NCBI GenBank assembly: GCA_027320085.1
Contig: DAHVLZ010000009.1
Span: 265,017 to 329,016, forward strand
DNA: 64,000 bases
DNA from: Pseudomonadota bacterium
Lineage (GTDB): Bacteria; Pseudomonadota; Gammaproteobacteria; JAKAQQ01
Direction of reading: 5' to 3'
Shown: piece after piece, positions 4,574-55,776 of the stretch
Layout: every line of letters begins with the position of its first letter
Position numbering within the stretch: position 1 is the first letter of the stretch
Notes under the pieces: generated by a model
Database searches by the model: none
Told to the model about the DNA's origin: nothing
The model's input: the letters and a program-made list of their open reading frames with translations, nothing else
Made by a program: the position numbers and the translations under genes

Positions 4574-4748
4574 GGCATACTCCGTACCCTGACTGACGCT
4601 TTAATGGGCCAATGGTCTAGCTATCCTACCCCACTGCGGGAGACCGAATGAGAGACCGCTACGGGCTATAATGCTTATGGAGCCCCTCACTCTAAATTTT
4701 TTTACGGGTTCCATCATTCCTTATTTCATAATGATTTAGACCCAAAAA

Positions 4749-6716
4749 TTGGACAGACTAGAGCCGAGTCCTGAATCGGGCTCCCAACTGAACGATGACT
4801 ATCGAGGGGAACGGTCTCGCTACCTCTTCCCATTGATGGCCGTGGGTGCTTTGGGCGTCGTTTATGGCGACATCGGAACTAGTCCTCTTTACACCCTTCA
4901 AGCCTGCTTTTCAGCACCCAACTCGTTCAGTATTTCCCCAGCGAACATCATTGGCGTCCTATCCCTCGTTCTCTGGACACTTACGGTCACGGTCACACTT
5001 AAATACGTGGCTTTTGTCCTCAGGGCAGATAATCGGGGGGAGGGAGGAATCCTCGCACTCCTTGCGCTTTTGAGTCCCGCACCTCCGGGCACCAGTCATG
5101 GAAAAAGAAGATCCCAGAAACTGCTGCTTGCCCTAGGTCTTTTCGGGGCTACCCTTCTCTACGGCGACGGCATGATTACACCGGCTATCTCGGTCCTGAG
5201 TGCAATCCAAGGACTCGACGTCATAACGCCCACTCTCGACCGCTATATTATCCCGGTGACCGTCATTGTTCTTGTTGCACTTTTTAGCATTCAGAGACGG
5301 GGTACGGGCAAGATCAGCCAATGGTTCGGGCCGGTGATGCTCCTCTGGTTCCTTTTGCTCGCGATCACAGGCCTCGGCGAAATTCTAAACCACCCCTTGA
5401 TTCTTCTGTCGCTCAACCCGCTGGCTGGTGTCGGTTTTCTTAGCCGACATCGCCTTGCCGGATTTCTGGTTCTAGGTGCTGTCATCCTTGCGGTCACCGG
5501 CGCAGAAGCCCTGTACGCAGATCTCGGCCATTTCGGCCGTCCTCCGATCCGCCTAGCCTGGCTAGCTGTGGTATTCCCCTCCCTCCTGTGTAACTATCTA
5601 GGGCAGGGGGCACTTCTCCTGCATGACCCTGGCGCCATCAGTGCACCACTTTATCATTTGGTTCCTCAGTGGGCTCTCATTCCCACCGTCATCTTGGCAA
5701 CTGCGGCCACAATCATCGCCTCACAAGCAATCATCTCGGGTAGTTTTTCCCTGATGGGACAGTCAATTCGTCTCAACCAAACGCCACGCATGCGAATTGT
5801 CCAGACGTCACGGGATGAGAAAGGTCGAATTTACATCCCCACGCTGAACTGGCTTCTCATGATCGGAACGATTGGCCTCGTCTTAGCTTTTCGGACAGCC
5901 AATAATCTGGCCGGGGCCTATGGAGTTGCAATCAGCACCCTTATGTGGATCACGACGATCTTTCTTATGCTTCTGGCGCACCGTCGATGGGCTTGGTCAA
6001 TCCCCAAAACGATACTCATCCTGGGCGGATTTTTGGTCATAGACAGTGTCTTCTGGATGAGCACACTCACAAAGATTCCGGATGGTGGCTGGTTCCCACT
6101 GCTCATTTCACTTCTCCTCTTCGGCATGATGGAAGTGTGGGCCACAGGGCGACAAGAACTGATCCGTCGCCTGCAGGCACACACTGAACCTTTGCTTGCA
6201 TTTCTCGCCCATCTCGTTGAGGAGCCACCGATCCGTGTCCCGGGAACCGCAGTGTACTTTACAGCACCTAATCTTGGGGTCCCCCCAACCTTGTCGCACC
6301 AACTGATCCATCTTAAAACGCTACACGAACACGTTATCCTGCTCACAATCGTTACTCATGAAGTGCCCTTTGTTCATGCAGGAAATCGGCTCGACATAGA
6401 GTCACTGGGCGAAGGCTTCTACCGGGTACTTGTACACTTCGGATTCATGCAGCCACAGAACATTCCTGTCGCGCTATCACTTGGGGCCGAACAATTCGGA
6501 CTGCCGTTTCAACCCGAAACGGCCAGTTACTTTATCGGCCGTGAAAGTCTTGTCATACCGGATCAGATCTCATTGGCCGGTCGCTTTTTCAACCGGATTT
6601 TCGCCTTCTTATCCCGAAACGCGTCACGAGCCACTGATTTTTACGAGATCCCCGCCGATCGGGTCGTCGAACTGGGTCTTCGGATCTCCTTGAACGGTGG
6701 TCACGGCCAGCCGTAA
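4749..6716 (+). CDS. kup: Potassium uptake protein Kup (KUP/HAK/KT family)
   Basis: It carries the hallmark N-terminal motif VVYGDIGTSPLY and runs ~650 aa with 12 TM segments plus a cytoplasmic C-domain. The true start may be a later Met. Confidence 0.9.
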   Translation: MDRLEPSPESGSQLNDDYRGERSRYLFPLMAVGALGVVYGDIGTSPLYTLQACFSAPNSFSISPANIIGVLSLVLWTLTVTVTLKYVAFVLRADNRGEGGILALLALLSPAPPGTSHGKRRSQKLLLALGLFGATLLYGDGMITPAISVLSAIQGLDVITPTLDRYIIPVTVIVLVALFSIQRRGTGKISQWFGPVMLLWFLLLAITGLGEILNHPLILLSLNPLAGVGFLSRHRLAGFLVLGAVILAVTGAEALYADLGHFGRPPIRLAWLAVVFPSLLCNYLGQGALLLHDPGAISAPLYHLVPQWALIPTVILATAATIIASQAIISGSFSLMGQSIRLNQTPRMRIVQTSRDEKGRIYIPTLNWLLMIGTIGLVLAFRTANNLAGAYGVAISTLMWITTIFLMLLAHRRWAWSIPKTILILGGFLVIDSVFWMSTLTKIPDGGWFPLLISLLLFGMMEVWATGRQELIRRLQAHTEPLLAFLAHLVEEPPIRVPGTAVYFTAPNLGVPPTLSHQLIHLKTLHEHVILLTIVTHEVPFVHAGNRLDIESLGEGFYRVLVHFGFMQPQNIPVALSLGAEQFGLPFQPETASYFIGRESLVIPDQISLAGRFFNRIFAFLSRNASRATDFYEIPADRVVELGLRISLNGGHGQP

Positions 6717-6744
6717 CGGAGAAGAAGCATCGAGGATTTTGCGC

Positions 6745-7731
6745 ATGCTTTACCGCCGTCTGGGTCGTTCCGGCCTCAAGTTAAGTGCTCTATCGTTTGG
6801 CTCCTGGGTAACCTTTGGTCCGCAAGTTGATCAGGCCGGGACCATTGACCTCATGGCCTGCGCTCTCGACCATGGAATCAACTTCTTCGACAATGCCGAA
6901 GCCTACGCGCATGGAGCATCTGAACGCCTCATGGGACAAGCCTTCCGCACCCTGGGTTGGAGCCGTGACCAATTCTGCGTATCCAGCAAAGCTTTCTTCG
7001 GCTCTGTCCAGAATCCTGCGCCCACCCAATGTGGCCTGAGCCGCAAACATCTGGTCGAAGCCTGTCATCAGGCGCTGAAGAGACTTGGCCTGGATTACCT
7101 TGACCTATTTTTTTGCCACCGGCCAGACCCAGAGACACCGATCGAAGAAATCGTGGTCACCATGGCAACCTTGATCCAGCAAGGGAAAATCCTCTACTGG
7201 GGAACTTCAGAGTGGCCTGCTACTTGGATTGAAAGCGCTATCCAAAAGGCCCATGAACTGAACTTGCCGGCCCCGCTCATGGAGCAGCCACAATACAATC
7301 TGTTCGTTCGGAAACGGGTTGAAGTCGAATACGAGTCCCTATGCCAGACCGAGGGGCTCGGACTCACCACGTGGTCACCCCTTGCATCTGGAATTCTCAC
7401 CGGAAAATATATGGATGGCTCCCAGATCCCGCCCGGCAGTCGCTTCAGTCTCCCCGATTACGAGTGGTTACGGGAGCGATTCCAAGGAAAAGACGGACAA
7501 CGACAACTCAAGGCTGCCTGCGGTCTCGTTGAGCTCAGTCACGAGAATGGCACGACTCCCGCTACCTTGGCCATCGCCTGGTGCCTGTCGAACCCATGTG
7601 TGACCACCGTCATCCTGGGCGCTTCTCGCAGGGAACAGCTACTCGATAACCTGAGAGCAATTGAGTACTTACCGAAAATCCAAGGTTCACTCAAAAACCG
7701 CTTGGAATCTCTCTACTCTGATCCCGCGTGA
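6745..7731 (+). CDS. Aldo-keto reductase, Kv-beta/AKR6-like (Tas/YajO-type)
   Basis: The ORF begins MLYRRLGRSGLKLSALSFGSWVTFG and shows the AKR catalytic pattern (D-x-A-x-x-Y, K, H). Its start lies 28 nt after the kup stop. Confidence 0.85.
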   Translation: MLYRRLGRSGLKLSALSFGSWVTFGPQVDQAGTIDLMACALDHGINFFDNAEAYAHGASERLMGQAFRTLGWSRDQFCVSSKAFFGSVQNPAPTQCGLSRKHLVEACHQALKRLGLDYLDLFFCHRPDPETPIEEIVVTMATLIQQGKILYWGTSEWPATWIESAIQKAHELNLPAPLMEQPQYNLFVRKRVEVEYESLCQTEGLGLTTWSPLASGILTGKYMDGSQIPPGSRFSLPDYEWLRERFQGKDGQRQLKAACGLVELSHENGTTPATLAIAWCLSNPCVTTVILGASRREQLLDNLRAIEYLPKIQGSLKNRLESLYSDPA

Positions 7732-7845
7732 TATCCTGTTCCGGAGGGTCTGGAGTCAGCCTCCACCCAGCAACCCGATCATCATCTAGCTCTTGTGTCA
7801 GAAGGGTCCGATGACGAGGGCCAATAGCTAGGGGGCTTTCTGTCT

Positions 7846-9465
7846 TCAGGGACCTTCGACGGTCTCAATCCCCCGGGTTCCCAGATTCTTGATGCGTTCG
7901 GAACATTGCTGGGCTGCTTCAGGCGACTGTCCACTCATAAGAGCCAGAACCAGAATGACGAGACTGAACCCGGCGAGTATCCACATGCCAGTGAAAAACC
8001 CGTAGTCTCCAAGCCCATCCATGGGTTTGGATGTGGGGCCCAGAAGACTGATGATCCAGAGTCCCGCGAAGTATGGAATAAGCCACCAAGCCTGCTGCCA
8101 CCCCAGGTCTGCCGCTCGCCCGCGATGAATCACGAAGTACCAGAACAGGTAAACCAGCCCGTAGATCGCCACCAGTCCGAGAAGCCACTTGACCACGTCA
8201 TAGCCAGTCCAGTAGATGATCCAGTTGGCCGCAATAAATGCGATCACCGAGATTATCCCCGCCAGACGCAACCGAAAGGGTCGCTTCGCATCCGGCATCG
8301 CCCGACGAAGATGAAGCAGGATGACTGGGCCGATGCTGTAAGACAGGACGGTGATCAGCGAGACGGCCGAAACCAGTTTCTGCCATGATGGAAAGGGGAA
8401 AAAGAAAAAGACGCCAACAATGTAAGTCAGAATCAGGCCGATCCAAGGTACACCAAAACGATTGAGCTGGGTGACGCTCCGTGGCGCATTGCCCATCTCT
8501 CCCGCGGCCATGATGATCCGCGGACTCCCTGTGACGTAGATAAAAGCCGTACCAAGCGGGGAAACGATCGCATCCACATAGAGAAGCACAGCCCACCAGA
8601 ATGCACCGACGGCAATGGCGATCGCTGCTAACGGGCTGAACATCCCGGTGAAACGCAAATGGGCCCAACCGTGGGCAATGTCAGCCGGACGCAGCGCAAA
8701 GATAAATGCAAACTGCAGGAGAACGTATATCAAAAGGGCGATCACAACCGAACCTATAAGTGCAATGGGTATATAGCGGCTTGGATTCCGAGTTTCCCCC
8801 GCCAACGCAATCGCCTGCTGAAATCCCAGATAACTGAAAATGATACCTGCTGTTGCAACAGCGGTAAAAATCCCACTTACTGGGGTGCTGGAGAGATGTG
8901 CCGTTATGTTGCCCGGATGAAAGGAATAAGCCATCAGGATCACAATCGTTGCCACCGGAACAACCACTTTCCACCAAGTGGCCGCACTGTTAATCGCGAT
9001 GACCCAACGAACGGCCAGGAAATTGAGTGCCACGACAAATGCCAGCAAGATGGCAGCGGCGACAAAACCCAACCCGGTCAACAAGCCGTTGTTGGCATGG
9101 ATCAATCCAGGGATGTAATCGTTGGCGTAGGTGAGAACCGCGCTGACCTCCACCGGAGGCACAGATACAAACGCCAAAAACAAAATCCAGCTCCAGATCT
9201 TGCCGACGAAATCACCATGACTGACGTGCGTCATATGGACAAGGGCTCCCGAGTTCGGGAACATCGTCGATAACTCGGCAAACACGAAAGCGAGGAAGAG
9301 GACCGTTGCAGCACCAACCACCCAAGAAATCACACTGAATGGACCAGCCTGTAGAGACGCATGGAGCGCCCCAAACAACCAACCGGATCCGATGATGCTG
9401 CCCAAGCTGGCGTACAACAAACCGACCACACCGGCATCCCGTTTAAGCTTTGTGGGTCCTGCCAT
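7846..9465 (-). CDS. APC-superfamily amino acid permease
   Basis: A 539-aa protein of about 12 TM helices that resembles amino-acid/polyamine/organocation transporters. Confidence 0.75.
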   Translation of the reverse strand: MAGPTKLKRDAGVVGLLYASLGSIIGSGWLFGALHASLQAGPFSVISWVVGAATVLFLAFVFAELSTMFPNSGALVHMTHVSHGDFVGKIWSWILFLAFVSVPPVEVSAVLTYANDYIPGLIHANNGLLTGLGFVAAAILLAFVVALNFLAVRWVIAINSAATWWKVVVPVATIVILMAYSFHPGNITAHLSSTPVSGIFTAVATAGIIFSYLGFQQAIALAGETRNPSRYIPIALIGSVVIALLIYVLLQFAFIFALRPADIAHGWAHLRFTGMFSPLAAIAIAVGAFWWAVLLYVDAIVSPLGTAFIYVTGSPRIIMAAGEMGNAPRSVTQLNRFGVPWIGLILTYIVGVFFFFPFPSWQKLVSAVSLITVLSYSIGPVILLHLRRAMPDAKRPFRLRLAGIISVIAFIAANWIIYWTGYDVVKWLLGLVAIYGLVYLFWYFVIHRGRAADLGWQQAWWLIPYFAGLWIISLLGPTSKPMDGLGDYGFFTGMWILAGFSLVILVLALMSGQSPEAAQQCSERIKNLGTRGIETVEGP

Positions 9466-9676
9466 AAATACCTCCGGAGTTATATTTCTGACTCGTGAGC
9501 CCGTTACTTACTCAAGCTCCGGGCCGTTCTCACTGACTTGGTAACTGCACAACCAGCAAGCTTTCTGGGCTGGCGTCAACCCAGCCGGCCATGATCCCCA
9601 AAACTTCCTGGAGAACAAGGGCCCGCTGATCCTAGCCGAAAGCTAGGGGTTACAGCAAGTCGCCCCCCCATTCGGC

Positions 9677-10282
9677 CTAGCGGACCCGGGTTACGAAAAC
9701 CTGCTCGCCGTATCCTCGCACTTCAAGAACATAGCCAACTATCAATTTTTTGATCTTGACTCTGGGATCAATGAGTTTGGGGATTCGGAAATATCCCGTA
9801 CCGGACTGGACCCATGTCTGTCCATTCATGAGATGGAATCTAGTATTCCCAGTCCATCCCTGGAATACCCCGTCAATCCGGCTCTCGATTTCATTGGGGA
9901 GATGACGATATCGTCTTGGAGGTAATCCGAAGTGAGCCACCCGGCCCTGATGGGCCCTGAGTCGAGACGAAGGAGCGTGGCGTGGTGGTACGATCGGGAC
10001 GGCTGCCCTCGCAGAAACGACCGCCCTACTCATCGCGTGTAGGTGTGCTGCCAACCACCGTTCCAGAGCCTGCCGTTGTTCGGTACTCAAGCGGTCAATC
10101 CCCGCTCGGTCGTAGGCATCCACCGTCATGAGTTTTCTCAGACGTATCCTGGGTGTTGTCGGGGAATGCTTGTGTGCTGCCCACGCTGATGCTCCAACTA
10201 GGCCGGTTGCACAACAGATAACCAAGGTAATGAATATCTTGCCTCTGGGGAGAGAGCGCCATTCCGAGGGCTTGGCATACAT
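9677..10282 (-). CDS. Hypothetical exported protein
   Basis: It has an N-terminal TM/signal segment (IFITLVICCATGLVGASAWA). I recognise no family. It is in the same orientation as its neighbours. Confidence 0.4.
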   Translation of the reverse strand: MYAKPSEWRSLPRGKIFITLVICCATGLVGASAWAAHKHSPTTPRIRLRKLMTVDAYDRAGIDRLSTEQRQALERWLAAHLHAMSRAVVSARAAVPIVPPRHAPSSRLRAHQGRVAHFGLPPRRYRHLPNEIESRIDGVFQGWTGNTRFHLMNGQTWVQSGTGYFRIPKLIDPRVKIKKLIVGYVLEVRGYGEQVFVTRVR

Positions 10283-19314: not shown

Positions 19315-19929
19315 TTGGTTTTCGAGGTTTTCGTCATGATGAAGCTTTCGCGTTTCCTGATTTTGTTTGCAGGGCTCTTGCTCCTTGCCGGTTGTGTCTC
19401 TCCGGTCGGTGTAGAAACGTCACGGACCGCGCATTTTGCTGGTTTACAAGATTTTGCCTGGTTGAAATCGGGCAAAACCCCACTCAAGAACCCCATCGTC
19501 GATAGTGGTATCGTCTCCCATCGGATTAAGCAAGCGGTCATTGAAGCCTTGAGAAACAGAGGTTTTTCATACCGGAAACATCGCTCCCAAGCGCAGTTCC
19601 TCGTCACGGATCATCTGATCAGCCACAGGGAGATGGTTATGAACCCACCGCTCTTCTACGGCTACGGGTTCTATGGAGACCCCTTCTTCCCGGGCTATGA
19701 CGATGATGGGTTCTTTGGCCCCGGACCAATCGGATACGGCTATTTTGGACCCTACGGCTATGGCTACTCCTACCCCGTGGCAGTTTTGGTCATCGATGTC
19801 CTTGACGCCAAAAAACACCGGCTGATCTGGAGAGGATGGGTTACCCGCAGAATTAGTCAGTCCAACTTCTCGGCTGCTGCAATCTATCGGGATGTCAACC
19901 GCATTTTGGACCACTTCCCAGCCCGGTGA
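19315..19929 (+). CDS. Lipoprotein (DUF4136-like) with Gly/aromatic-rich low-complexity insert
   Basis: A lipobox is present (LLLLAGC). There is a central FYGYGFYGDPFFPGYDDDGFFGPGPIGYGYFGPYGYGYSYP tract. Confidence 0.6.
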   Translation: MVFEVFVMMKLSRFLILFAGLLLLAGCVSPVGVETSRTAHFAGLQDFAWLKSGKTPLKNPIVDSGIVSHRIKQAVIEALRNRGFSYRKHRSQAQFLVTDHLISHREMVMNPPLFYGYGFYGDPFFPGYDDDGFFGPGPIGYGYFGPYGYGYSYPVAVLVIDVLDAKKHRLIWRGWVTRRISQSNFSAAAIYRDVNRILDHFPAR

Positions 19930-20097: not shown

Positions 20098-20961
20098 GTG
20101 AGTTCGCCTTACATTCCTTATTTCGGTCTGCGCGAGGAACCCTTCGGGATGACGCCCGACCCGCGCTTTCTTTTTTTGAGCCGGCAACACCAAGAGGGAC
20201 TTGCTCATCTTCTCTATGGTCTGACACAAGAAGGAGGTTTCGTCGAGCTATCAGGAGAAGTGGGAACCGGCAAAACGACCTTGGTTCGCCGCCTGCTTGA
20301 ACAATCACCTGCTGGCGTTGAAGTCGCGCTCATTTTGAATCCTAAGCAAACTCCCAAGGCCTTTACCCTGAATCTCCTGCGCGAACTCCGAGCAGACTTG
20401 AGCCCAAATGCAAGCCGCCTTGATCTCCCAACGCTGGTCGGGCTTGTATACCAGCAGTTGTTTTCAATTTACCGAAAGAGCCAACGGGCCATTCTGATTG
20501 TTGACGAGGCCCAAGCTCTCTCGGTCGAAACGCTGGAACAAATCCGACTTCTGACGAATCTCGAAACCTACCAAGAAAAACTCCTCCAAATTGTTCTCGT
20601 CGGCCAACCAGAAATTGACGAACTTCTAGATGGAGCAGCGCTCAGGCCCCTTCGAAACCGGATCACAGCACGCTTCCATCTAGGACCGCTGACTGCCCGT
20701 GAAACATCCGAGTACATCACCCATCGACTGGCAGTTGCCGGCTTGGCCTCGACTCTGTTCACTCCAAGCGCCACCCGCTTGATCCATCGCCATGCCCGCG
20801 GATTTCCCCGCACCATCAACATTTTGTGCTCCAGAGCCTTACTTGCAGCGTACGTCACGGGAGACCGCATAGTGGGGCGAAATTTGGTCCACCAAGCTGC
20901 CCGGGAACTTTCTGGTCGTTCTACGCCAAGGTTCTGGTCACGCTGGCTCCGCCCTTCCTAA
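20098..20961 (+). CDS. ExeA/GspA/MshM-like AAA ATPase (T2SS/T4P-associated)
   Basis: The N-terminus has the typical YFGLREEPFGMTPDPRFLFLS sequence and a Walker A motif (GEVGTGKTT). At 287 aa it is the ATPase module only, with no peptidoglycan-binding C-domain. Confidence 0.85.
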   Translation: MSSPYIPYFGLREEPFGMTPDPRFLFLSRQHQEGLAHLLYGLTQEGGFVELSGEVGTGKTTLVRRLLEQSPAGVEVALILNPKQTPKAFTLNLLRELRADLSPNASRLDLPTLVGLVYQQLFSIYRKSQRAILIVDEAQALSVETLEQIRLLTNLETYQEKLLQIVLVGQPEIDELLDGAALRPLRNRITARFHLGPLTARETSEYITHRLAVAGLASTLFTPSATRLIHRHARGFPRTINILCSRALLAAYVTGDRIVGRNLVHQAARELSGRSTPRFWSRWLRPS

Positions 20962-20973
20962 GGAATCGCCGAC

Positions 20974-21558
20974 TTGTCCATCATTCTGGATGCACTCAGG
21001 AAGGCCGAGCTGGAGCGAAGCCACCGGGAAAGGGATTTCCTCTCGACACCTCCTGATCTTCGACCCCAGCGCAAGCGCGTGCACTGGTTCATTTGGGCAG
21101 TTGCTGGCGTGTTCTGTCTGATCCTGGGAGGATTTATCACCTCTGAGATTTCCACTTGGCTCCACCCTCACCCAGCCGTCTCATCGCCGGCTGCCCCCGT
21201 TCCACCCAGGCCTGTAGTTCGGAAAACTCGCACGAAAATAGGGTCTTCGACATCGACCGTCGGACATTCCACGCATCCGCACACGCGGACAATAGCGAGG
21301 CCTGCGCCTATTGAGCCATCGCACCAACCAAACGTTGCATATGAAGCGGCCAAGCCCGGTGTTCTACCCACCAACCTGGGCTGGCATATCCAGGTTTTTA
21401 GTTGGAATCCCAATCCCGCCCAACGCTTTGTTGTGATCAATATGCAAACCTATCGGGCGGGCGCATTGCTCCCGGGAAGGGTTCGACTCGTTCAGATCCT
21501 CCGTCAGGGAATTCTTATCCGAGACCGGAACCGACTCTACCTTTTTCCCCGCCCTTGA
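20974..21558 (+). CDS. gspB: General secretion pathway protein B (GspB/ExeB-like)
   Basis: The canonical N-terminus MSIILDALRKAELERS is followed by a single TM helix and a Pro-rich linker. A GspB_C-like tail is present (VINMQTYRAGALLPGRVRLVQI). Confidence 0.75.
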   Translation: MSIILDALRKAELERSHRERDFLSTPPDLRPQRKRVHWFIWAVAGVFCLILGGFITSEISTWLHPHPAVSSPAAPVPPRPVVRKTRTKIGSSTSTVGHSTHPHTRTIARPAPIEPSHQPNVAYEAAKPGVLPTNLGWHIQVFSWNPNPAQRFVVINMQTYRAGALLPGRVRLVQILRQGILIRDRNRLYLFPRP

Positions 21559-21562
21559 ACCC

Positions 21563-23413
21563 GTGACGGGGCAGAGTCTGATCTTTGCCGTTAGCGCAAG
21601 AGAAAGCTCCTCCACTTCTGGTAATATCATGCTGATGATGAATAGAAAACCGACGCTTGCGGGCCGCCGGGGAGTGGGTTGTTTCCTAATTGGCTTGGCG
21701 GCTTTCCCCTGCCTGACCTGTGCCGTCGCGGCGGGTACTGTTGGCGTGCCGGGGTCTGGTGTACATCGGGGATTCCGAGAGGAACGCTCGGGTTTTATCC
21801 AAGGGCTTAGAAATACCCCCCGCACTTGGTTACGTCTTAAGCGCCTGACCCATTATTCAAGAAATGGAATCGCCCGATACGCCCTGATTTTCGGTACACC
21901 ACCCGACTTATCCTCTTCAAACTTGAAACCGCTAACGGTTTTTATAACTCCACCTCTTAACCGTCCAGGCTATACCATCTCGATGGTTGCCCAAACCCTT
22001 TTCCGTCAGCTGACCAACCGCCAACTCAGGCACCATCTCCTCGGTCATCTAACCTTTGTCCTTTTTCTGCCCGATAGAACTGTTGCGCATGGAACTGGCG
22101 GCGGGCACGACGCCCGGATTCCGGGTCTTCGCAGCCCTTGGGATAACCAAGACATAGACTTGCTCAAGGCCCATTCGCAGAGGGTCCGGGACTGGCTCCG
22201 CTTGTTCCATCAGTGGAACCCAGATGTGGTGATGGAACTCGCAGGTACCGAAACCGCAAACTGGCGAGCTCAATGTCTTTTTGAGAGCGCGCCCGCTGCT
22301 CTCCTCCCTGCTCCGCTGTCTGATCTCTCCCATCGCCTCCGTTCCGAGGCCCGATCTACCTGGCAACAACACGATGTACAGGTCCGTACCTGGTTTCGAC
22401 TACTCAACCCTGCAAGCCCGAGCCTTGGAGTCATCACGGAACGCGGTCAGCTCTCGGGTCCGGTTCCCTACAGTGCATTAAGCCGTACGCTAGCCTTTCG
22501 CTGGATCTGGAACGACAAGCCAAAGGGTCAGCATCTCTCTACAAAAATTTGGCAAACTTTGGATCCCTGGTTCGACCTCCTGATCCAGGATCGCTCCAAG
22601 ATTCTCCGTGCCAGAGCCCAATCACGTACTAGCGGAGATGGCAAACCTGTCGTGGTCCATCTACCCCTGTCCGGGAAAATCGTACGTAAAGCAACCCCAT
22701 TTCTGCTCCATACATACGCCTACGACGAAACTCTGAGCCCGATTTCTGGGACAGTCTGGGTCCGTTACAACAAGCATCAACCTCAGAATTACTTGGTTCC
22801 ACGTTTTACTCGGCCGTTCCTGACCCTGAAGCAGTCCGGCATTTCTGGCTATCTCGTACCATCGGTTTTTGTTCGCGCAATACAAGCGCTCAAACGGAAT
22901 GGAATACGAATGAAGATTTTGCACAAAGCTCGGACACTACGCGTCATCGTTGATCAACTGGGAAGGATCCGGTGGAGTATTCCACCACAGACTAGGACGC
23001 CCACCATCCGCTCCTACCAAGCACAACCAAGAATCCGTTTGCTTACCTACCCCGCGGGCTCTGCTTTTATTCCACTTAATCAAAAATATAGCGCCTTAGT
23101 CGCCGCTCTGCTTGATCCGAACAGCCCCTATAACCTCTTGTACCTTGGGTTTTTCCATAATCTTTTTGACCACCTCCCTCGCTTGCCTCAGGCTCGTTTG
23201 GAAACAATTGCCCGCCAGCTTCTCAGAACCCACCCGAAACTCGCTCGCGGATTTCTTCACCGGATCCTCGATCGCCGCTTTGCGGGGAACCCGCGCAGCC
23301 GTCTTGACTTCTTTTATCGGCACCTGTTCCGTGATCCCGTCTCCCGACATCTGTACCCCGTCGCCGAGTGGCCGGCCACATCTCAAGACCGGACACCACT
23401 GCCTACACCGTGA
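21563..23413 (+). CDS. Large exported hypothetical protein (616 aa), possible degenerate M14-carboxypeptidase-like region
   Basis: It has a signal/TM segment (GVGCFLIGLAAFPCLTCAVAAG). PLNRPGY weakly resembles the M14 NPDGY motif. There is no confident family call. It is tightly spaced after gspB. Confidence 0.45.
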   Translation: MTGQSLIFAVSARESSSTSGNIMLMMNRKPTLAGRRGVGCFLIGLAAFPCLTCAVAAGTVGVPGSGVHRGFREERSGFIQGLRNTPRTWLRLKRLTHYSRNGIARYALIFGTPPDLSSSNLKPLTVFITPPLNRPGYTISMVAQTLFRQLTNRQLRHHLLGHLTFVLFLPDRTVAHGTGGGHDARIPGLRSPWDNQDIDLLKAHSQRVRDWLRLFHQWNPDVVMELAGTETANWRAQCLFESAPAALLPAPLSDLSHRLRSEARSTWQQHDVQVRTWFRLLNPASPSLGVITERGQLSGPVPYSALSRTLAFRWIWNDKPKGQHLSTKIWQTLDPWFDLLIQDRSKILRARAQSRTSGDGKPVVVHLPLSGKIVRKATPFLLHTYAYDETLSPISGTVWVRYNKHQPQNYLVPRFTRPFLTLKQSGISGYLVPSVFVRAIQALKRNGIRMKILHKARTLRVIVDQLGRIRWSIPPQTRTPTIRSYQAQPRIRLLTYPAGSAFIPLNQKYSALVAALLDPNSPYNLLYLGFFHNLFDHLPRLPQARLETIARQLLRTHPKLARGFLHRILDRRFAGNPRSRLDFFYRHLFRDPVSRHLYPVAEWPATSQDRTPLPTP

Positions 23414-24639
23414 AAATCCTGGTTGCTGAAAGTTCGCGTCTGTTCCACCTCGCCTGGGAGCGCCTGATCCGGGATTTGGGGCAGGAACCGGTTTTTGCGA
23501 CAACGGGGGAAGAAGCCATCCGGTGGGCACAAGAATCAGCCTGCCATACGGGACTGATTTCCCATACCTTGCCTGACATGGACGGGGAGCGTTGTCTCGC
23601 CCGCATCCAGCAGCTGGCTCCAATTCCTCTCTTCCGCCCGGTTGTGGTCACATCTAACCCGGACAGTTGGGGGATAGCGCTTATGAAAGAGCCGGTTTGG
23701 GAAGTGGTTGACCGACAGAACCTACCCGCCATCCGGCAGATCCTTGAAGATCGGATCCGGGATTACGCGATCCAGTCTTTCCTACCCGTTCTGTACCTTG
23801 ACGATAGCCAAGTGGCGGCAAAGCACATGCAGAATCTGTTTGCCAAACTGGGGGTCACCCTCCACCACTTTCCAACCCCAAATGAGGCTCTCCATGCTCT
23901 TGGAGAAAACGCCTACGAACTAGTACTGTGTGACGTTCAGATCGAAGACGCGGCAACCGGCTACGCTTTGGTCCCCAAAATCCGTCATGCAATCCAGACT
24001 GGGGAGCGCCCCCCACTCGTTCTTGTTTCTGCAAATGACAGTCCCGACCAGAGACAACTGGCTATACTTTCCGGGGCAGACGACTTCTGGAGTAAATCGA
24101 TTTCTATAGGAGTCGTCCAAAAGCATCTGGAAGGCTACCGTGAGACTCGCCTCCTCCGTGAACGGATTGTTCAGCTGGAACAGAAGGTACTAGCGGAGCG
24201 TTTTCTCGAATCGGAAAGCAGCCTCCCAAACGAGCGCGCGCTTCAGGCTTATGCAAACTGGCGCTTCCGTGCCGGATTTGCGGAATCTACCCTGATCCGT
24301 GTGGTCCTAGTTCATCTCCATGGCCAGTGTGAGACCGAGAGGGATACATCAGAATACCCTAGTCCAGTCACACACTGGCCAGAACTCAAAAAATGGAAGT
24401 CCTTGCTCCCACGGACGGTTTTTTGCGCCCTCCTCTCTCACAGTCAGTTGGTTGTGATCATGCCCGCCATGTCAGATGATTCTTCAACTGAGCCGCTTCC
24501 TTGGTATGGATTGCCCCCCCTGCCTTACACACTGGCACCTGCTGGCATATCTGATACCACCAGTCTCGTCATCCATGCCGGAGCTAGTTTTGAGGAAGTC
24601 TGGCTAAATTTGAAACTAGAACACGAAACGGCTGACTAA
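23410..24639 (+). CDS. PleD-like response regulator: REC (degenerate) - REC - degenerate GGDEF
   Basis: The GTG start overlaps the upstream stop (GTGA). The second REC has YLDDS...LVLCDVQI. The C-terminal domain has the GGDEF-fold layout (SLPNERALQ..., LVHLHGQ) but reads LSHSQ where the GG(D/E)EF signature belongs. Confidence 0.55.
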   Translation: MKILVAESSRLFHLAWERLIRDLGQEPVFATTGEEAIRWAQESACHTGLISHTLPDMDGERCLARIQQLAPIPLFRPVVVTSNPDSWGIALMKEPVWEVVDRQNLPAIRQILEDRIRDYAIQSFLPVLYLDDSQVAAKHMQNLFAKLGVTLHHFPTPNEALHALGENAYELVLCDVQIEDAATGYALVPKIRHAIQTGERPPLVLVSANDSPDQRQLAILSGADDFWSKSISIGVVQKHLEGYRETRLLRERIVQLEQKVLAERFLESESSLPNERALQAYANWRFRAGFAESTLIRVVLVHLHGQCETERDTSEYPSPVTHWPELKKWKSLLPRTVFCALLSHSQLVVIMPAMSDDSSTEPLPWYGLPPLPYTLAPAGISDTTSLVIHAGASFEEVWLNLKLEHETAD

Positions 24640-28881: not shown

Positions 28882-29442
28882 TTATACAAACCGGATGGAG
28901 GGGAGAAGAATATTGATGAAGAACAGGATTGCGAGCGCCAAAAGGGGAGAAAAGTCGAGCCCACCGGTTGCAGGCACGAAACGACGCAAGGGCCGCAGGA
29001 TCGGTTCATTGATGGCATAAAGAAAACTCGTCATGGGATGCTGCACGTAGGGGGGCTGGATCCAACTCATGAGAGCCCCAACGATCAGAGTAAAAATGTA
29101 AAAATCATCCAAGAGAGTTGCACATTTAACGAGTGCGGCGAGTGCGAGCACACCCCCGCTAAGGGGGCGGCCAGCAATCCCGGCCAAGATGGCCACGTCA
29201 AGCCCGCATAGCACAACGGCGACGATAAGACTCCACCAGTCACGGCGCATCACTCGGCTCCCAGACCAATGGTAGAGTGGCTTCAGAACCGGCCATGTCA
29301 ACCGGCCGATGCTCTGTACTACAGGATGGGAGAAGTTGAGAGGTCCCCAGCTCATGGCGAATCGCGAGAGAAAAAGTAGGGCACCGACCGTGAATAGGAA
29401 ATTCACCAGAAAAAGCCAGGCGCTGGACCAGTGCAGAATCAT
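28882..29442 (-). CDS. yggT: YggT-family membrane protein
   Basis: A 186-aa protein with the duplicated YggT TM repeat. It lies immediately downstream of proC, as in many proteobacteria. Confidence 0.75.
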   Translation of the reverse strand: MILHWSSAWLFLVNFLFTVGALLFLSRFAMSWGPLNFSHPVVQSIGRLTWPVLKPLYHWSGSRVMRRDWWSLIVAVVLCGLDVAILAGIAGRPLSGGVLALAALVKCATLLDDFYIFTLIVGALMSWIQPPYVQHPMTSFLYAINEPILRPLRRFVPATGGLDFSPLLALAILFFINILLPSIRFV

Positions 29443-30377: not shown

Positions 30378-31448
30378 ATGCCTGAAGAAGCCATTCGCAT
30401 CCTTGATATAGCCCAGCTTTTGGAGTTCGGCGTACGAAACAACGCCTCCGACCTCCATATTTCCGCCGGCGAGCCCCCGATGATCCGGGTCGATGGAGAC
30501 ATCCGACGAATCAATTTGCCGCCCCTCGATGGAAAGAAAGTGCATGACATGATCTACGACATTATGAACGATAAACAAAGGAAGCACTTTGAGGAATTCA
30601 TGGATTGCGATTTTTCTTTTGAAATCAGTAAGCTAGCACGGTTCCGGGTCAACGCGTTCAATCAACGCAGGGGGCCAGGTGCAGTCTTCCGTACCATTCC
30701 CTCCGATGTCAAGACACTCGAGGATCTCGCCAGTCCGCCGACCTTCAAGGAACTCGTATTGCGACCCCGTGGGCTTGTCCTGGTCACCGGGCCAACCGGG
30801 TCCGGGAAGTCGACGACGCTCGCCGCCATGGTCAACCACGTCAACGAAAGTGTCATGTCCCACATTCTCACGATCGAGGACCCGATCGAGTTCGTGCACC
30901 AATCCAAGAAGTGTATTATCAACCAGAGGGAGATCCATGAGCACGCGCTCGGATTCGCAGAGGCCTTGCGTGCCGGATTGCGTGAAGATCCGGACGTGAT
31001 TTTAGTAGGTGAAATGCGTGATCTCGAAACCATCCGTCTGGCTCTCACAGCCGCCGAAACCGGTCACTTGGTTTTTGCAACCCTGCACACGAGTTCTGCC
31101 GCCAAGACAGTCGACCGTATCGTTGATGTCTTCCCGGCTGCCGAGAAGGATATGGTCCGCACCATGCTTTCCGAGTCACTGCAGGCTGTCATCTCGCAAA
31201 CCTTGCTCAAAAAGGTCGGCGGTGGACGGATTGCTGCCTACGAAATCATGACAGCCACTCCTGCGATCCGCAACCTGATTCGGGAAAACAAAGTAGCCCA
31301 GATGTACTCGGCCATCCAGACTGGGCAGGCACACGGCATGCAAACGTTGGACCAGTGCCTGTCTGAGTTGCTCCGCCGGGGCGCCATCACACGGGAGCAA
31401 GCTCGCATCAAGGCAACCAACAAAGAGCTGTTCGCCCCAGGGGGATAA
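30378..31448 (+). CDS. pilT: Type IV pilus retraction ATPase PilT
   Basis: Identity to PilT is high and near-continuous (MIRVDGDIRRINLPPL, LVLVTGPTGSGKSTTLAAM, AIRNLIRENKVAQMYSAIQTG). Confidence 0.9.
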   Translation: MPEEAIRILDIAQLLEFGVRNNASDLHISAGEPPMIRVDGDIRRINLPPLDGKKVHDMIYDIMNDKQRKHFEEFMDCDFSFEISKLARFRVNAFNQRRGPGAVFRTIPSDVKTLEDLASPPTFKELVLRPRGLVLVTGPTGSGKSTTLAAMVNHVNESVMSHILTIEDPIEFVHQSKKCIINQREIHEHALGFAEALRAGLREDPDVILVGEMRDLETIRLALTAAETGHLVFATLHTSSAAKTVDRIVDVFPAAEKDMVRTMLSESLQAVISQTLLKKVGGGRIAAYEIMTATPAIRNLIRENKVAQMYSAIQTGQAHGMQTLDQCLSELLRRGAITREQARIKATNKELFAPGG

Positions 31449-31451
31449 TTC

Positions 31452-32627
31452 ATGGACCGTGAACAAGCCATTAAGTTCGTCCACGATTTGCTGCGCATCA
31501 TGACCCAGCGCAGAGCCTCGGATCTCTTCATCGCAGCTGATTTCCCACCCGCCATGAAGATTGATGGTGAGGTCAAACCGGTATCCGACCGTCCCTTTAC
31601 TGCGGAACAGTCGGGTGTGATTGTCCGTGCCCTTTTCAATGACCGGCAGTCCCGCGAGTTCGATGCAACCAAGGAAATCAGTTTCGCAATAGCGCCGAAG
31701 GGGATTGGTCGGTTCCGGGTCAGTGCCTACGTCGAACAGGGACGGTTGGGTGCAGTTCTCCGCACGATTAATACACAGGTCCCCACAGTTGCCGAACTTG
31801 AGCTTCCACGGATCCTGGAAGACATCTCTCTCACCAAACGCGGGCTCGTGCTGGTGGTCGGAGCAACCGGCTCGGGAAAATCTACCACTCTGGCGGCTAT
31901 GATCCATCACCGGAATATTGTTGCTCATGACCACATTGTTACCATTGAGGATCCCATTGAGTATGTCCACGGTCATGGATCCTGCCTGGTCACCCAGCGC
32001 GAACTGGGCGTGGATACCGAATCTTGGGGGGCCGCCCTCAAAAATACACTGCGACAAGCGCCTGACGTCATCTTGATTGGGGAGATTCGAGATCCTGAAA
32101 CCATGTCATACGCCGTTGAGTTCGCCGAAACCGGACACCTCTGTCTCAGCACCCTGCATGCCAACAATGCCAACCAAGCGTTGGACCGAATCATTAATCT
32201 CTATCCCAAAGAACGGCGTCAGCAGTTGCTCATGGACCTTTCGCTGAACCTCAAAGCCATGGTCTCCCAGCGCCTCCTCCGACGGGCAAGCGGTACCGGC
32301 CGAGTGGCAGCCTTGGAAATCCTGGTCAACACGCCGTTGGCCGCTGACCTGATCTTCAAGGGTGAAATTGCCGAGCTCAAGGAACTAATGGCAAAGTCAG
32401 TCAACGCTGGTATGCAAACATTCGACCAAGCGATTTTTGACCTTTACGAGAACGGTACCATTAGCTACGAGGAGGCACTCCGCAATGCCGACTCACAGAA
32501 TGAGCTACGCCTCCGGATTAAGCTCGAAAGCAAACGGGCTTCACGACCAGACGATTCCGAGCTTGATCAGCTTCATTTATCGGAACCGGAAACGGCGCAA
32601 CCCAAGTCACTTCGTCCCGGAAAATAA
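31452..32627 (+). CDS. pilU: Type IV pilus ATPase PilU
   Basis: It shows the PilU-type sequence (GIGRFRVSAY, GATGSGKSTTLAAMI, HANNANQALDRI) and has the characteristic C-terminal extension. Confidence 0.9.
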   Translation: MDREQAIKFVHDLLRIMTQRRASDLFIAADFPPAMKIDGEVKPVSDRPFTAEQSGVIVRALFNDRQSREFDATKEISFAIAPKGIGRFRVSAYVEQGRLGAVLRTINTQVPTVAELELPRILEDISLTKRGLVLVVGATGSGKSTTLAAMIHHRNIVAHDHIVTIEDPIEYVHGHGSCLVTQRELGVDTESWGAALKNTLRQAPDVILIGEIRDPETMSYAVEFAETGHLCLSTLHANNANQALDRIINLYPKERRQQLLMDLSLNLKAMVSQRLLRRASGTGRVAALEILVNTPLAADLIFKGEIAELKELMAKSVNAGMQTFDQAIFDLYENGTISYEEALRNADSQNELRLRIKLESKRASRPDDSELDQLHLSEPETAQPKSLRPGK

Positions 32628-32666
32628 TCTCCTGCCAACTCCCCGATACCCTGTCTGGAAACTTAG

Positions 32667-33722
32667 ATGAATCTAGAACCTTATCTGCGCCTGATGGCCG
32701 AAAGAGCCGCCTCGGATTTGTACCTGACCACAGGCTCGCCCATCAAGATCCGAGTCCAAGGGAGAGTTCTATCTGTGGGCCGGACTCCACTCGACGAATC
32801 GATGATCAGGGAAGCGACCCTTGGCATCATGAATGAAGCACTGATCAACCAGTTCGAGAATCGTCACCAAGCTGAATTCCCCCTGGAAATTACCGGAGTA
32901 GGGCGTTACCGGGTGAATGTGTTTCTCGAACGAGGCCGGGTTGCCATGGCCATCCGTTTTATTCCGATCAAGATCCCTGAATTGGACACCTTGGGGTTAC
33001 CTGGAGTTTTGAAGGAGCTGATTCGTGCACCAAGAGGACTCATCCTTGTCGTGGGCGCGACAGGTGCTGGGAAATCCACAACCCTGGCTTCCTTGATTGA
33101 CTACCGTAATGCACACCAGGCGGACCATATTCTCACCATTGAGGATCCCATCGAGTACGTCTACGAAAACCGCCTCTCGATTGTGAATCAACGTGAGGTC
33201 GGGAACGACGTTCTGAGTTACGCAGATGCCTTGCGTAGCGCATTGCGCGCGACACCCGATGTTCTGCTTATTGGTGAAATTCGGGACTCAGAGACCATGT
33301 CTGCCGCAGTTGAAATGGCCGCGACGGGCCACCTCACCTTGGCCACACTCCATACCAGCAATGCCCATCAGACCCTTGAACGGATCCTCAACTTGTACTC
33401 CGAATCGGCCCAGAAACTGGTACTGACTGACCTTTCAATCAACATGCGGGCAATCATCGCCCAGCGGCTGGTTCCCAATGTGGATGCGAAACTGGTTGCA
33501 GCTGTCGAAATCCTGCTCAATACCCCACATATGGCGGACTTGATTCACAAGGGAGAACTCGGTATGTTGCGTGAAGCCATGGAGTCGAGCCATGAAATTG
33601 GAATGCAAACATTCGATACGGCGCTCTACCAGCTCTACCGGGACGGCATCATTGACCTCAAGACCGGACTGAACTATGCCGATTCCCGAACCAACCTTGA
33701 AAACAAGATCCGTTTCGGCTGA
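32667..33722 (+). CDS. Third PilT/PilU-family ATPase paralog (PilU-like)
   Basis: A 351-aa protein with Walker A GATGAGKSTTLASL and the His box HTSNAHQTLERI. It is closest to the PilU subfamily. Confidence 0.85.
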   Translation: MNLEPYLRLMAERAASDLYLTTGSPIKIRVQGRVLSVGRTPLDESMIREATLGIMNEALINQFENRHQAEFPLEITGVGRYRVNVFLERGRVAMAIRFIPIKIPELDTLGLPGVLKELIRAPRGLILVVGATGAGKSTTLASLIDYRNAHQADHILTIEDPIEYVYENRLSIVNQREVGNDVLSYADALRSALRATPDVLLIGEIRDSETMSAAVEMAATGHLTLATLHTSNAHQTLERILNLYSESAQKLVLTDLSINMRAIIAQRLVPNVDAKLVAAVEILLNTPHMADLIHKGELGMLREAMESSHEIGMQTFDTALYQLYRDGIIDLKTGLNYADSRTNLENKIRFG

Positions 33723-38617: not shown

Positions 38618-40156
38618 GTGCGACAAATCGTCAAAAACAGTTTACTGGTCGTTTTGAGCGTGACTTCAGCCGGAGCTTGGGCACGCCTGCCAGTTCATGA
38701 ACCCGTCGCTCCTGCCCACCCGATTCTCGGGCGCCGCATTGTCAGCCACGGGGTGGTTGTGGTGGATGGCCGCCGCATCCCTTATACGGCAACCGCGGGA
38801 ACTCTTATTCTCAAAAACAAAAAGAACCAGCCAACAGCTAGCATGTTTTATGTGGCCTATACCCGTTCTGGCGTCCGCCACCTCTCGCAGCGACCGATCA
38901 CATTCGTCTACAACGGTGGACCTGGTTCATCCTCCGTATGGCTACTCATGGGTGGACTCGGTGCTGTCCGGGTTGTCACAGCCAACGCTCGGGTCACCCC
39001 GCCACCACCTTACCCCGTGATTTCCAGCCCATCGAGCCTGTTACCGGTCACCGATCTGGTATTCATTGATGCTGTTGGCACCGGATACAGCCATGTGGTT
39101 GGGGTTGGCCGGGACAAAGATTTCTGGGGAGTCGATGACGACGTGCGCTCTTTTGGACAATTTATTGAGCGCTACATCAGCCAGAACAACCGCTGGAACT
39201 CACCCAAGTTCCTGCTTGGAGAAAGCTATGGGACCACCCGATCGGCCAATCTTGTGGATTACCTCGAGGGGCAAGGAATCACCTGTAATGGCGTGATCCT
39301 GCTTTCCTCTATCTTGAACTACGGGGATTCCTGGCCCGGTACCGATCTGCGTTACATAACCTACCTGCCTTCCTATACGGCAGTCGCCTGGTATCACCAT
39401 GCCTTGCCTGAGCAACCGGCACATCTTGCCCCTCTCATCCGCAAGGTCGAGCAGTTTGCCCGAACCTCCTACGCTTATGCCCTTTTCCAGGGGAGTCGTC
39501 TCAGCCCGGCCAAGAAAGCTGCCGTTCTGGCCACGCTGCATCAATATACAGGCCTCAGTACCGGCTTTCTCGAGGCGGTCCACCTACGGGTCACTCCGGA
39601 CCGTTTTAGAGCGCAACTGCTAAGAGATCGAGGCCGTGAACAGTTTGTTGGCCGGCTTGATGCACGCTTCACAGGGATCAATCGGGATGGGGCCGAGGAA
39701 TCCCCGGACTACGGGGCGCTCATGGCCGCCGTTTCGCCCGCTTTCACGGCGGCATTCAACTGGTATGTCCGCGAACGCCTGCATTACAGCGCTCATCGCG
39801 CCTATCGGGTGATGAACGGGCAGGTTATCCAGAAGTGGAACTGGAATCACCGGTTTCCGGGAGCTGGTTACTCCTGGCCCTTGCCTGATGTTGCACCCAA
39901 CCTGGCGGATGCGATGAGGAAAAACCCCTATCTCCAGATTTTTTCAGGCAATGGATATTTTGACCTCGCAACACCGTTTTACAAGACCGAGTTCGACTTT
40001 GCCCATATGAAACTCCCTCATCGCCTCATGACACGAATCCATTTTCACTTCTACCACTCCGGGCATATGCTCTACCTTCACCCAGCCACCCTGGCTCATC
40101 TTGACCGCAATCTGATCCAGTTCTATCACATGGTTCTTGCCAGAGATCACCAGTAA
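38618..40156 (+). CDS. Peptidase S10 (serine carboxypeptidase) family protein, secreted
   Basis: It has a signal peptide and the GESYGT nucleophile motif (canonical S10 GESYAG). The overall alpha/beta carboxypeptidase length is ~510 aa. Confidence 0.65.
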   Translation: MRQIVKNSLLVVLSVTSAGAWARLPVHEPVAPAHPILGRRIVSHGVVVVDGRRIPYTATAGTLILKNKKNQPTASMFYVAYTRSGVRHLSQRPITFVYNGGPGSSSVWLLMGGLGAVRVVTANARVTPPPPYPVISSPSSLLPVTDLVFIDAVGTGYSHVVGVGRDKDFWGVDDDVRSFGQFIERYISQNNRWNSPKFLLGESYGTTRSANLVDYLEGQGITCNGVILLSSILNYGDSWPGTDLRYITYLPSYTAVAWYHHALPEQPAHLAPLIRKVEQFARTSYAYALFQGSRLSPAKKAAVLATLHQYTGLSTGFLEAVHLRVTPDRFRAQLLRDRGREQFVGRLDARFTGINRDGAEESPDYGALMAAVSPAFTAAFNWYVRERLHYSAHRAYRVMNGQVIQKWNWNHRFPGAGYSWPLPDVAPNLADAMRKNPYLQIFSGNGYFDLATPFYKTEFDFAHMKLPHRLMTRIHFHFYHSGHMLYLHPATLAHLDRNLIQFYHMVLARDHQ

Positions 40157-54784: not shown

Positions 54785-55776
54785 GATCGGGGATCCTTCC
54801 AGTGGTGCTGGGTCTTGGTACTACGCTTCGGTTGGAGCAGGCTGGGTCTTGCGCTTGAGTTTTCAAGATCTCCCTTCCGGATCGACTGATGCTGGATCCC
54901 ACCTCGCGCGTGGGTCACCCACTCAAAGTCGACGCCGGTCCGTTCTGAAAAGCGGGCACTAATCTCGAGTCCCAACTCTTCGCCCGGAACGAGTTGAAGG
55001 GGCTCCAAAACGGGTGCGAAAATCTGTTCCCAATGGGTGGTAGGGGAATCGGGTGCAGTCGAGAGGACGACTCCATCAATCAGGTCGGCAGTCCACCACA
55101 TCGCAAACCCAAAGACCCATCCGGTCTGTTCGAACCGCCAATCCACTCGGCACCGTCTTCGGCTCCGGTAGCGGGTACCAAAATCAATCCGATCCCAGAC
55201 GCGCGCAGGTGGGATTCCTGCGAAGTCAGCCGACTGAAAGGTTCGAACATAGAGGTTCTGGCGGCTCAAATGGCTGAGGGGCGTCAAGTCCAGATCCATA
55301 CCGTCGGCCCTCCAGGGGTCGAGTTCAGCCCAAAAACGGGCGCTCCCGACCGGCCGGATATACAGGGTCAGCGCATTCGGTATACGGATTCCGCCCGGTA
55401 CCAGAAACCGTCGCGCATCCCACAAAACCTCTCCGATTCCTTCCTCAAGCCCTAAATTGCCCAAGGTCTCGGAAACTACGAGATCAACCGGCTCCGGGTC
55501 CAGAATCGACCTCGAATCCTCAGCGAAAACCTCGATCCGTGAAAGGCGGTTGCGACGCACAAGGAATTCCGAGAGTTTCGCCAGCGGAATTTCCCGCTCA
55601 TAAAGTGTGGTCGAACGCGCCCCCAAGGCATCAGACATGAATCCCAGCCATCCGGTTCCGGAACCCAGGTCCGCCACGCGGGTTACACCCGGCTGGATTG
55701 CCATTTTCAGGGCCTGGCAGAACGCCTCATTTCGGACACGGTCAGCCGCTAGGCGGCGATGGTAGTCGATCAGCAT
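54781..55776 (-). CDS. Protein arginine N-methyltransferase-like class I SAM methyltransferase
   Basis: Motif I reads VADLGSGTGWLG. A PRMT-specific THW loop is present (TTHWEQ). The 3' end overlaps the downstream permease start (ATGA). Confidence 0.6.
   Translation of the reverse strand: MLIDYHRRLAADRVRNEAFCQALKMAIQPGVTRVADLGSGTGWLGFMSDALGARSTTLYEREIPLAKLSEFLVRRNRLSRIEVFAEDSRSILDPEPVDLVVSETLGNLGLEEGIGEVLWDARRFLVPGGIRIPNALTLYIRPVGSARFWAELDPWRADGMDLDLTPLSHLSRQNLYVRTFQSADFAGIPPARVWDRIDFGTRYRSRRRCRVDWRFEQTGWVFGFAMWWTADLIDGVVLSTAPDSPTTHWEQIFAPVLEPLQLVPGEELGLEISARFSERTGVDFEWVTHARGGIQHQSIRKGDLENSSARPSLLQPKRSTKTQHHWKDPRS

Follow-up and report, generated by a model that had tools for sequence, protein, structure and literature searches.

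The present analysis concerns a locus of a Pseudomonadota bacterium (Gammaproteobacteria, JAKAQQ01; GenBank assembly GCA_027320085.1, contig DAHVLZ010000009.1) carried by a stretch of 64,000 nucleotides (nt), hereafter called the window. Positions 20098-24639 of the window hold four intact genes, all on the + strand: an exeA-gspB pair, a gene encoding an exported homologue of M14 carboxypeptidases devoid of catalytic residues (M14L) and a gene encoding a response regulator (RR) with two receivers (REC) and a GGDEF remnant. According to gene order in related loci, M14L and RR are a co-inherited gene pair, and this pair has stood beside DUF4136-exeA-gspB since before the split of two deep lineages. 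Judging from its relatives, the ancestor of the pair was most likely an active peptidase with an active cyclase, both of which lost catalysis. The set DUF4136-exeA-gspB-(tonB_C)-M14L-RR is a conserved envelope block that may be functionally coupled to secretin assembly by ExeAB, a coupling for and against which the evidence appears evenly poised.

The features of the locus are the following (positions in the window, strand, description; aa, amino acids):

20098..20961, +, short ExeA/GspA-type AAA+ ATPase, 287 aa (AAA_22, 92.5 bits; names of relatives)
20974..21558, +, GspB, 194 aa, TTG start (Pfam T2SSB, 34.6 bits)
21635..23413, +, exported dead M14 carboxypeptidase homologue (M14L), 592 aa (full-length alignment and model)
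21674-21736, +, M14L signal-like segment
21950-21973, +, M14L degenerate HxxE site, PPLNRPGY
22235-22255, +, M14L degenerate third-His site, ELAGTET
22640-23410, +, M14L conserved C-terminal domain
23410..24639, +, REC-REC-GGDEF-remnant response regulator, 409 aa (Pfam Response_reg twice; Foldseek; hhalign)
23410-23769, +, RR pseudo-receiver, Ser51 at the phospho-acceptor position
23782-24159, +, RR intact receiver, D131, D132, D175, S207, K229
24205-24636, +, RR GGDEF remnant, after a helical linker
24436-24450, +, RR SHSQL in place of GG[DE]EF
19336..19929, +, DUF4136 lipoprotein gene, 197 aa, lipobox LLLLAGC (Pfam DUF4136, E 6e-24)

The four genes and their products

An earlier note on this DNA described four co-oriented genes with minimal gaps or overlaps. 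Both the common orientation and the GTGA overlap at 23410-23413 hold, the GTG at 23410-23412 that starts the regulator overlapping the TGA at 23411-23413 that ends M14L. Close packing applies to this overlap and to the 12 nt that separate exeA from gspB, but not to the 76 nt that follow gspB when the third gene starts at ATG 21635. The open reading frames (ORFs), as called mechanically, span 20098-20961 (287 aa), 20974-21558 (194 aa), 21563-23413 (616 aa) and 23368-24639 (423 aa). Public gene calls and ortholog N-termini make the third gene begin at ATG 21635 (592 aa) and the regulator at GTG 23410 (409 aa); a public protein of 592 aa (P0001) is 100% identical to the third product. The mechanical lengths of 616 and 423 aa are therefore most likely too long, and the exported 616-aa protein of the earlier note, which does carry a signal-like segment, would measure 592 aa. 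The exeA and gspB genes start with GTG and TTG, respectively. A promoter scan returned 0 promoter-like sites, and terminator-like sites occur only at chance level. All four genes are intact in orthologs, including the third, whose disruption had been envisaged as a refuting case. The ratio of nonsynonymous to synonymous substitution rates (dN/dS) is 0.05-0.36 across the four genes, indicating purifying selection, and this rules out decaying pseudogenes.

ExeA and GspB assemble and anchor a secretin, the HR domain of GspB binding the secretin's N0 domain. To our knowledge, no accessory part of type II secretion is less well understood than ExeAB/GspAB, and we know of no account of how the activity of this pair is controlled. 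The ExeA-like protein of the window matches only AAA_22/AAA_16 in Pfam and displays a Walker A motif (GEVGTGKTT, 20254-20280) and a Walker B motif (ILIVDEAQ, 20491-20514). Its match to TIGR03015 reaches 241 bits, under the family cutoff, and its closest relatives carry the names general secretion pathway protein A or ExeA. The protein would be cytoplasmic, and its gene shows a dN/dS of 0.05-0.06. Neither PF01471 (Pfam) nor any hydrophobic or transmembrane (TM) segment was found in its 287 aa, in agreement with the missing peptidoglycan-binding C-domain reported earlier; ExeA of the L087 clade (L designates loci and P proteins throughout) has 338 aa and a TM segment. The loss of the periplasmic part is not unprecedented, since a short-GspA archetype that lacks a partner such as M14L is on record in Alteromonas/Pseudoalteromonas (PMC9239104).

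The T2SSB domain of the second product lies above the Pfam gathering score of 28.4. This protein displays a cytoplasmic N-terminus with a SIILDALRKAE motif, a single TM segment (residues 38-59, 21085-21150), a Pro-rich linker and an HR/T2SSB domain (21388-21528), a domain that was found to bind the secretin N0 domain in the case of Dickeya OutB (PMC9239104). GspB is kept over its full length in L005-L007, with a dN/dS of 0.10-0.12 in the HR domain and of 0.29-0.51 in the fast-evolving linker. On the strength of this score, of the full-length conservation and of the constrained HR domain, the gspB ORF is real. It is preceded by exeA also in L087, L089, L098 and L099, and the exeA-gspB assignment of the earlier note agrees with both the Pfam matches and the names of the relatives. 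In the window lineage, public metagenome gene calls skip the TTG-initiated gspB and call instead an antisense 88-aa ORF (21364-21630, -), so that gspB is absent from protein databases for these genomes.

No match to Pfam (PF00246 was not reached) or NCBIfam was obtained for M14L. It aligns over its full length with PF00246-bearing proteins of about 590 aa (E 1e-13 to 2e-17), and two dead relatives, P0160 and the M14 protein of L098, still match PF00246. Its structure was predicted, and its residues surveyed, using an alignment of 71 sequences, i.e. 63 other family members and 8 sequences of the window clade. In the resulting model (pLDDT 83, pTM 0.83), the N-terminal 300 residues or so match M14 carboxypeptidases (Foldseek E 1e-5) and adopt the M14 alpha/beta fold; no named structure is found among the top PDB matches of the C-terminal domain (about 250 residues). 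The residues H, E, N, R, H and E are all kept in 63/63 other family members, whereas the zinc ligands, the catalytic Glu and the Asn-Arg carboxylate anchor are all lost in 8/8 sequences of the window clade. The columns of the zinc ligands (HxxE, H) and of the catalytic Glu read N, G, A and I in M14L instead of H, E, H and E, and those of the anchor read D and I instead of the N and R found in all active members. The PPLNRPG of M14L aligns to the GGIHAGE of active relatives; PLNRPGY, noticed previously as a faint M14 motif, is thus the degenerate zinc-binding site.

The dead M14 clade is monophyletic in 199-200/200 neighbour-joining bootstraps, including when the C-terminal half is used alone, which is most simply read as catalysis having been lost once. 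The dN/dS is 0.20-0.32 in the M14-like domain and 0.09-0.12 in the C-terminal domain. On these alignments and this model, M14L is a protein of M14 fold without any catalytic or substrate-anchoring residue and with a strongly constrained C-terminal domain. Its N-terminal signal-like segment is VGCFLIGLAAFPCLTCAVAAG. A Tat or lipoprotein signal was rejected, as neither the Arg-Arg dipeptide nor the Cys is conserved among orthologs. The signal-like segment, the alignment and the predicted structure uphold the proposal of an exported M14 relative.

Pfam recognizes Response_reg twice in RR. When aligned with CheY, the first receiver carries Glu-Ser instead of the acidic pair, with Ser51 as the residue at the acceptor position, and the second keeps D131, D132, D175, S207 and K229; the pseudo-receiver shows a dN/dS of 0.10. 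The nature of the C-terminal domain is less obvious. Its 150 residues gave no match in Pfam or PDB sequence searches (HMMER), and the probability of GGDEF homology assigned by hhalign is just 3-14%, both of which speak against such an origin. However, the best PDB matches of the whole-protein model are full-length PleD (Foldseek E 2e-13), structures limited to REC-REC reaching 1e-9. Comparison of the domain with two GGDEF profiles by hhalign gave E values of 0.002 and 0.016 in the same register, which places LPN on LxNR and SHSQL on GG[DE]EF. Furthermore, RR is collinear with orthologs whose GGDEF domain is recognized by Pfam. The Foldseek matches, the two weak hhalign matches and the collinear orthologs together suggest a domain of GGDEF origin, weakly so at the sequence level.

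The GG[DE]EF motif is missing in all 8 ortholog clusters of RR. This excludes a sequencing error, which the earlier note would have suspected had orthologs carried an intact GGDEF, and agrees with its description of a REC-REC protein with a dead GGDEF. It had read the signature as LSHSQ: the site is indeed degenerate, but the aligned residues are SHSQL, one position off. The likeness to PleD that it put forward extends to the tandem receivers and to the top structural match, but not to the order of the receivers, which is reversed. RR displays no active site (A-site), no DxD in the beta1 region and no RxxD inhibitory site (I-site), the position of the latter being occupied by LPRT in the window and by LPPR in the sister clade. 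The role of cyclic di-GMP (c-di-GMP) receptor that had been proposed therefore seems unlikely in the window lineage, the GGDEF remnant carrying neither A-site nor RxxD, which is present only in deeper relatives. No DNA-binding output domain was found by Pfam or Foldseek. RR may thus act as an adaptor that can be phosphorylated but whose output domain is dead.

The gene pair and the surrounding block

The M14L and RR genes are adjacent in four settings, namely the window clade, L090/L091, L092/L093 and L098/L099. The dead M14 proteins P0160 (L090/L091) and P0163 (L092/L093) are directly followed by a pseudoREC-REC-GGDEF gene. In these two settings, the A-site of the regulator is degenerate (GGASY and GGASF) and the I-site is intact (RGDD in L090, RTND in L092). 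This combination suggests that these regulators are similar to PopA of Caulobacter crescentus, a c-di-GMP effector made of two receivers and a degenerate GGDEF (PMC12564702). The regulators of L098 and L099 carry GGAGF with RAGD and GAEEF with RLGD, respectively.

An active relative, P0161, is encoded by L094, where positions 3152-9819 hold two tonB_C genes (-) followed by the active M14 gene, an M28 peptidase gene and a gene for a PleD-like regulator. This regulator has the same Ser-type pseudo-receiver and retains an intact GGEEF and RNED. The arrangement may represent the ancestral, enzymatically active form of the M14-RR pair. The regulators thus form a decay series that goes from GGEEF, through GAEEF, GGAGF or GGAS[YF] with RxxD, to forms having neither the motif nor RxxD. 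P0161 is the sole active M14 protein found beside such a regulator, and its partner is a cyclase with an intact GGEEF; this argues for derivation from an active pair and indicates that the pairing is older than the loss of catalysis. No such regulator adjoins the genes of two other active relatives, P0162 and P0164. Likewise, in 79 other M14 loci of reference genomes (L008-L084), no exeA or gspB lies nearby and no REC-REC-GGDEF gene lies directly downstream of the M14 gene, the GGDEF genes being kilobases off or on the opposite strand. The literature searches turned up no dead bacterial M14 protein described as paired with a GGDEF regulator.

Synteny extends over the whole neighbourhood from fadE to tatC in the loci L005, L006 and L007/L087, with M14L identities of 71-37%; by itself, this would show only shared ancestry. 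A metagenome scan with the pattern LSPISG[TSG]VW identified L098 and L099, which display the order DUF4136 - exeA - gspB - tonB_C (opposite strand) - dead M14 - RR. L092, a short contig, opens with the 3' end of gspB, followed by a tonB_C gene as in L098 and L099. These three loci overturn the idea that M14L-RR is linked to exeAB in the window lineage only. ExeA of the L098/L099 lineage is about 50% identical to that of the window; it has 513 aa in L098 and 507 aa in L099, with PG_binding_1 in both. No tonB_C remnant was found in the window or in the loci of its clade.

The DUF4136 gene accompanies exeA in both deep lineages (19336-19929, +, in the window; 1265-1939 in L098; about 1832-2329 in L099), the homologs of L098 and L099 being 33-35% identical and located directly upstream of exeA. 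The other flanks of the window, including fadE, mdh and tatC, are missing from L098 and L099. Co-conservation of the genes, a check called for by the earlier note, is thus found in L098, L099 and L092, with different outer flanks, and the maintenance of the block across these flanks favours a functional coupling with the ExeAB pair. In Burkholderia, DUF4136 genes close an operon encoding an RR, a LysM-FecR protein and a histidine kinase (PMC5192318), which hints at a role of DUF4136 in envelope signalling.

Possible functional coupling, its alternatives and other features of the window

If the block is functionally coupled to ExeAB, M14L would be a non-catalytic periplasmic binding or scaffold partner acting on the side of GspB, and ancestrally also of TonB_C. 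RR would be a phosphorylation-switched cytoplasmic adaptor, most plausibly acting on the ExeA ATPase and blind to c-di-GMP in the window lineage. The latter would harbour a reduced form of the system, in which tonB_C, the periplasmic half of ExeA and the RR I-site have been lost. A more specific proposal, which we regard as rather unlikely, is that a peptidase-cyclase pair turned into pseudoenzymes was recruited to ExeAB, the insertion of the secretin through peptidoglycan being the regulated step. The dead carboxypeptidase would then work with GspB, and ancestrally also with a TonB_C protein, at the cell wall, and the ExeA ATPase would be coupled through the dead cyclase to phosphorylation and, ancestrally, also to c-di-GMP.

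Several observations weigh against the coupling. L098 and L099 are syntenic with each other and, together with L092, amount to roughly one second deep lineage, so that the known occurrences of the block come down to about two independent deep lineages; some of its conservation could stem from vertical inheritance. No secretin or core gene of a type II secretion system (T2SS) lies within the window, and no histidine kinase gene adjoins the block. The binding of peptidoglycan peptides by M14L is not indicated, since the residues that would hold the C-terminus of the peptide are lost. The other observations also bear on an alternative, in which two unrelated modules lie side by side, exeA-gspB serving a secretin and M14L-RR, anciently with tonB_C, another envelope or peptide signalling process, their adjacency being merely an inherited order. 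The gaps are tight inside the pairs, as opposed to 76-304 nt between them. In L098, L099 and L092, gspB and M14L are separated by a tonB_C gene of opposite orientation; co-transcription is therefore not general, and the single co-oriented operon of the earlier note does not extend to the other lineage or to L090. The latter carries the M14L-RR pair after fabH, without exeAB, and the active M14 and RR genes of L094 have no exeAB inside 5 kb. Conversely, the outgroup exeAB loci L088 and L089, whose ExeA is similarly distant, lack DUF4136, M14L and RR and have a PG_binding_1 ORF between exeA and gspB. However, M14L of L090 is sister to that of L092 in the M14L tree, and L092 has gspB upstream, so that the absence of exeAB from L090 looks derived. 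Furthermore, the adjacency, including DUF4136, persists across lineages with different outer flanks and no more than about 50% identity between their ExeA. The independence of the two modules is therefore a serious possibility, to which we give clearly less credit than to the coupling. With about two independent lineages and one exception, the coupling itself is held at even chances.

In L088 and L089 (7001-8699 in each), exeA is called as an ORF of 350-424 aa with an Arg/Pro/Gly-rich tail that looks out of frame, and the PG_binding_1 ORF that follows is separate and has 120-134 aa. As fadE of L088 is also split, these divided exeA genes are probably due to frameshifts rather than truly split.

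The earlier note had proposed that M14L supplies the periplasmic function missing from ExeA, i.e. replaces its lost peptidoglycan-binding domain. This is weakened by L098 and L099, which possess both a dead M14 protein and an ExeA of 507-513 aa with PG_binding_1, so that M14L predates the loss of the domain. In addition, the anchor and the zinc site are gone from M14L, and GspA is known to occur as a short archetype that has no partner of this kind (PMC9239104). Replacement thus appears improbable. Still less probable is that M14L is an exported or secreted cargo or binding protein, for example a T2SS substrate or a TonB-linked peptide-capture protein, which just happens to be encoded beside the machinery and whose expression or use is regulated by RR. 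In its favour, active members of the family bear signal peptides and resemble secreted peptidases, the pair is flanked by tonB_C genes in L092, L094, L098 and L099, and an M28 peptidase gene lies between M14 and RR in L094. However, RR lacks a DNA-binding output domain, and a dead cargo without substrate-anchoring residues has no obvious role in scavenging.

Elsewhere in the window, three consecutive genes encoding PilT/PilU-family (T2SSE) ATPases of 356, 391 and 351 aa (30378-33722, +) lie some 6 kb downstream of the block; outside it, no other gene related to pili or secretion was seen. A 331-aa ORF (54781-55776, -) matches the eukaryote-type arginine methyltransferase domains PRMT5_C and PRMT_C, which is unusual for a proteobacterium. 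A 512-aa ORF (38618-40156, +) is annotated Peptidase_S10 (serine carboxypeptidase), a mostly eukaryotic family; the neighbouring 42347-45145 (-) encodes a 932-aa protein with a weak Phosphoesterase match. A 93-nt tRNA-Leu called by ARAGORN (29102-29194, -) inside the yggT ORF (28882-29442), where Rfam finds no tRNA at its gathering threshold, is probably a false positive.

Likeness to known systems and significance

As in ExeAB/GspAB of Aeromonas and Vibrio, a gene encoding an AAA+ protein is directly followed in the window by gspB, whose product combines a single TM segment with an HR (T2SSB) domain in the periplasm. Like Aeromonas ExeAB, the pair stands away from any cluster of T2SS core genes, and as in the short-GspA archetype of Alteromonas/Pseudoalteromonas, GspA lacks a periplasmic region (PMC9239104). 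However, the window pair departs from the GspAB archetypes: its ExeA has no TM segment at all, its GspB is short rather than elongated, and its neighbours in the conserved block encode a DUF4136 lipoprotein, a dead M14 homologue and a degenerate regulator of GGDEF type.

Like PopA, RR has two receivers and a GGDEF domain incapable of making c-di-GMP, and is presumably an adaptor. The regulators of L090, L092, L098 and L099 also keep RxxD as PopA does, whereas RR of the window lacks it, has a GGDEF domain invisible to Pfam and an intact receiver in second position, and is paired with a gene for a periplasmic pseudo-peptidase. PleD, its top structural match over the full length, likewise has tandem receivers, one of which is a pseudo-receiver. 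The order is pseudo first and active second in the window, where the A-site, the Mg-binding acidic residues and the I-site are gone. The N-terminal domain of M14L has the alpha/beta fold of M14 metallocarboxypeptidases, which include the wall-peptide enzymes Csd4/MpaA. Non-catalytic animal M14 members (CPXM/AEBP1) exist, and M14L similarly keeps the fold under selection without catalytic residues. However, it belongs to a distinct bacterial family of about 590 aa, with an uncharacterised C-terminal domain of about 250 residues, and is paired with a response regulator.

ExeAB, short GspA, dead GGDEF adaptors and inactive M14 proteins are thus each already known. Their conserved combination, and a paired loss of catalysis with graded cyclase intermediates, were not found in the literature searched. 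The locus would be a variant form of the exeAB locus, whose mechanism we infer. The value of the finding is limited by the fact that all carriers found belong to uncultured lineages, where function is deduced from sequence. Nevertheless, a block that links ExeAB to a signalling protein and to a pseudoenzyme resembling a wall enzyme is a concrete and testable candidate for the control of ExeAB. More largely, two neighbouring enzymes, one periplasmic and one cytoplasmic, appear to have lost catalysis and yet stay under selection, and the cyclase intermediates that still exist in related lineages may provide material for the study of the origin of pseudoenzymes.

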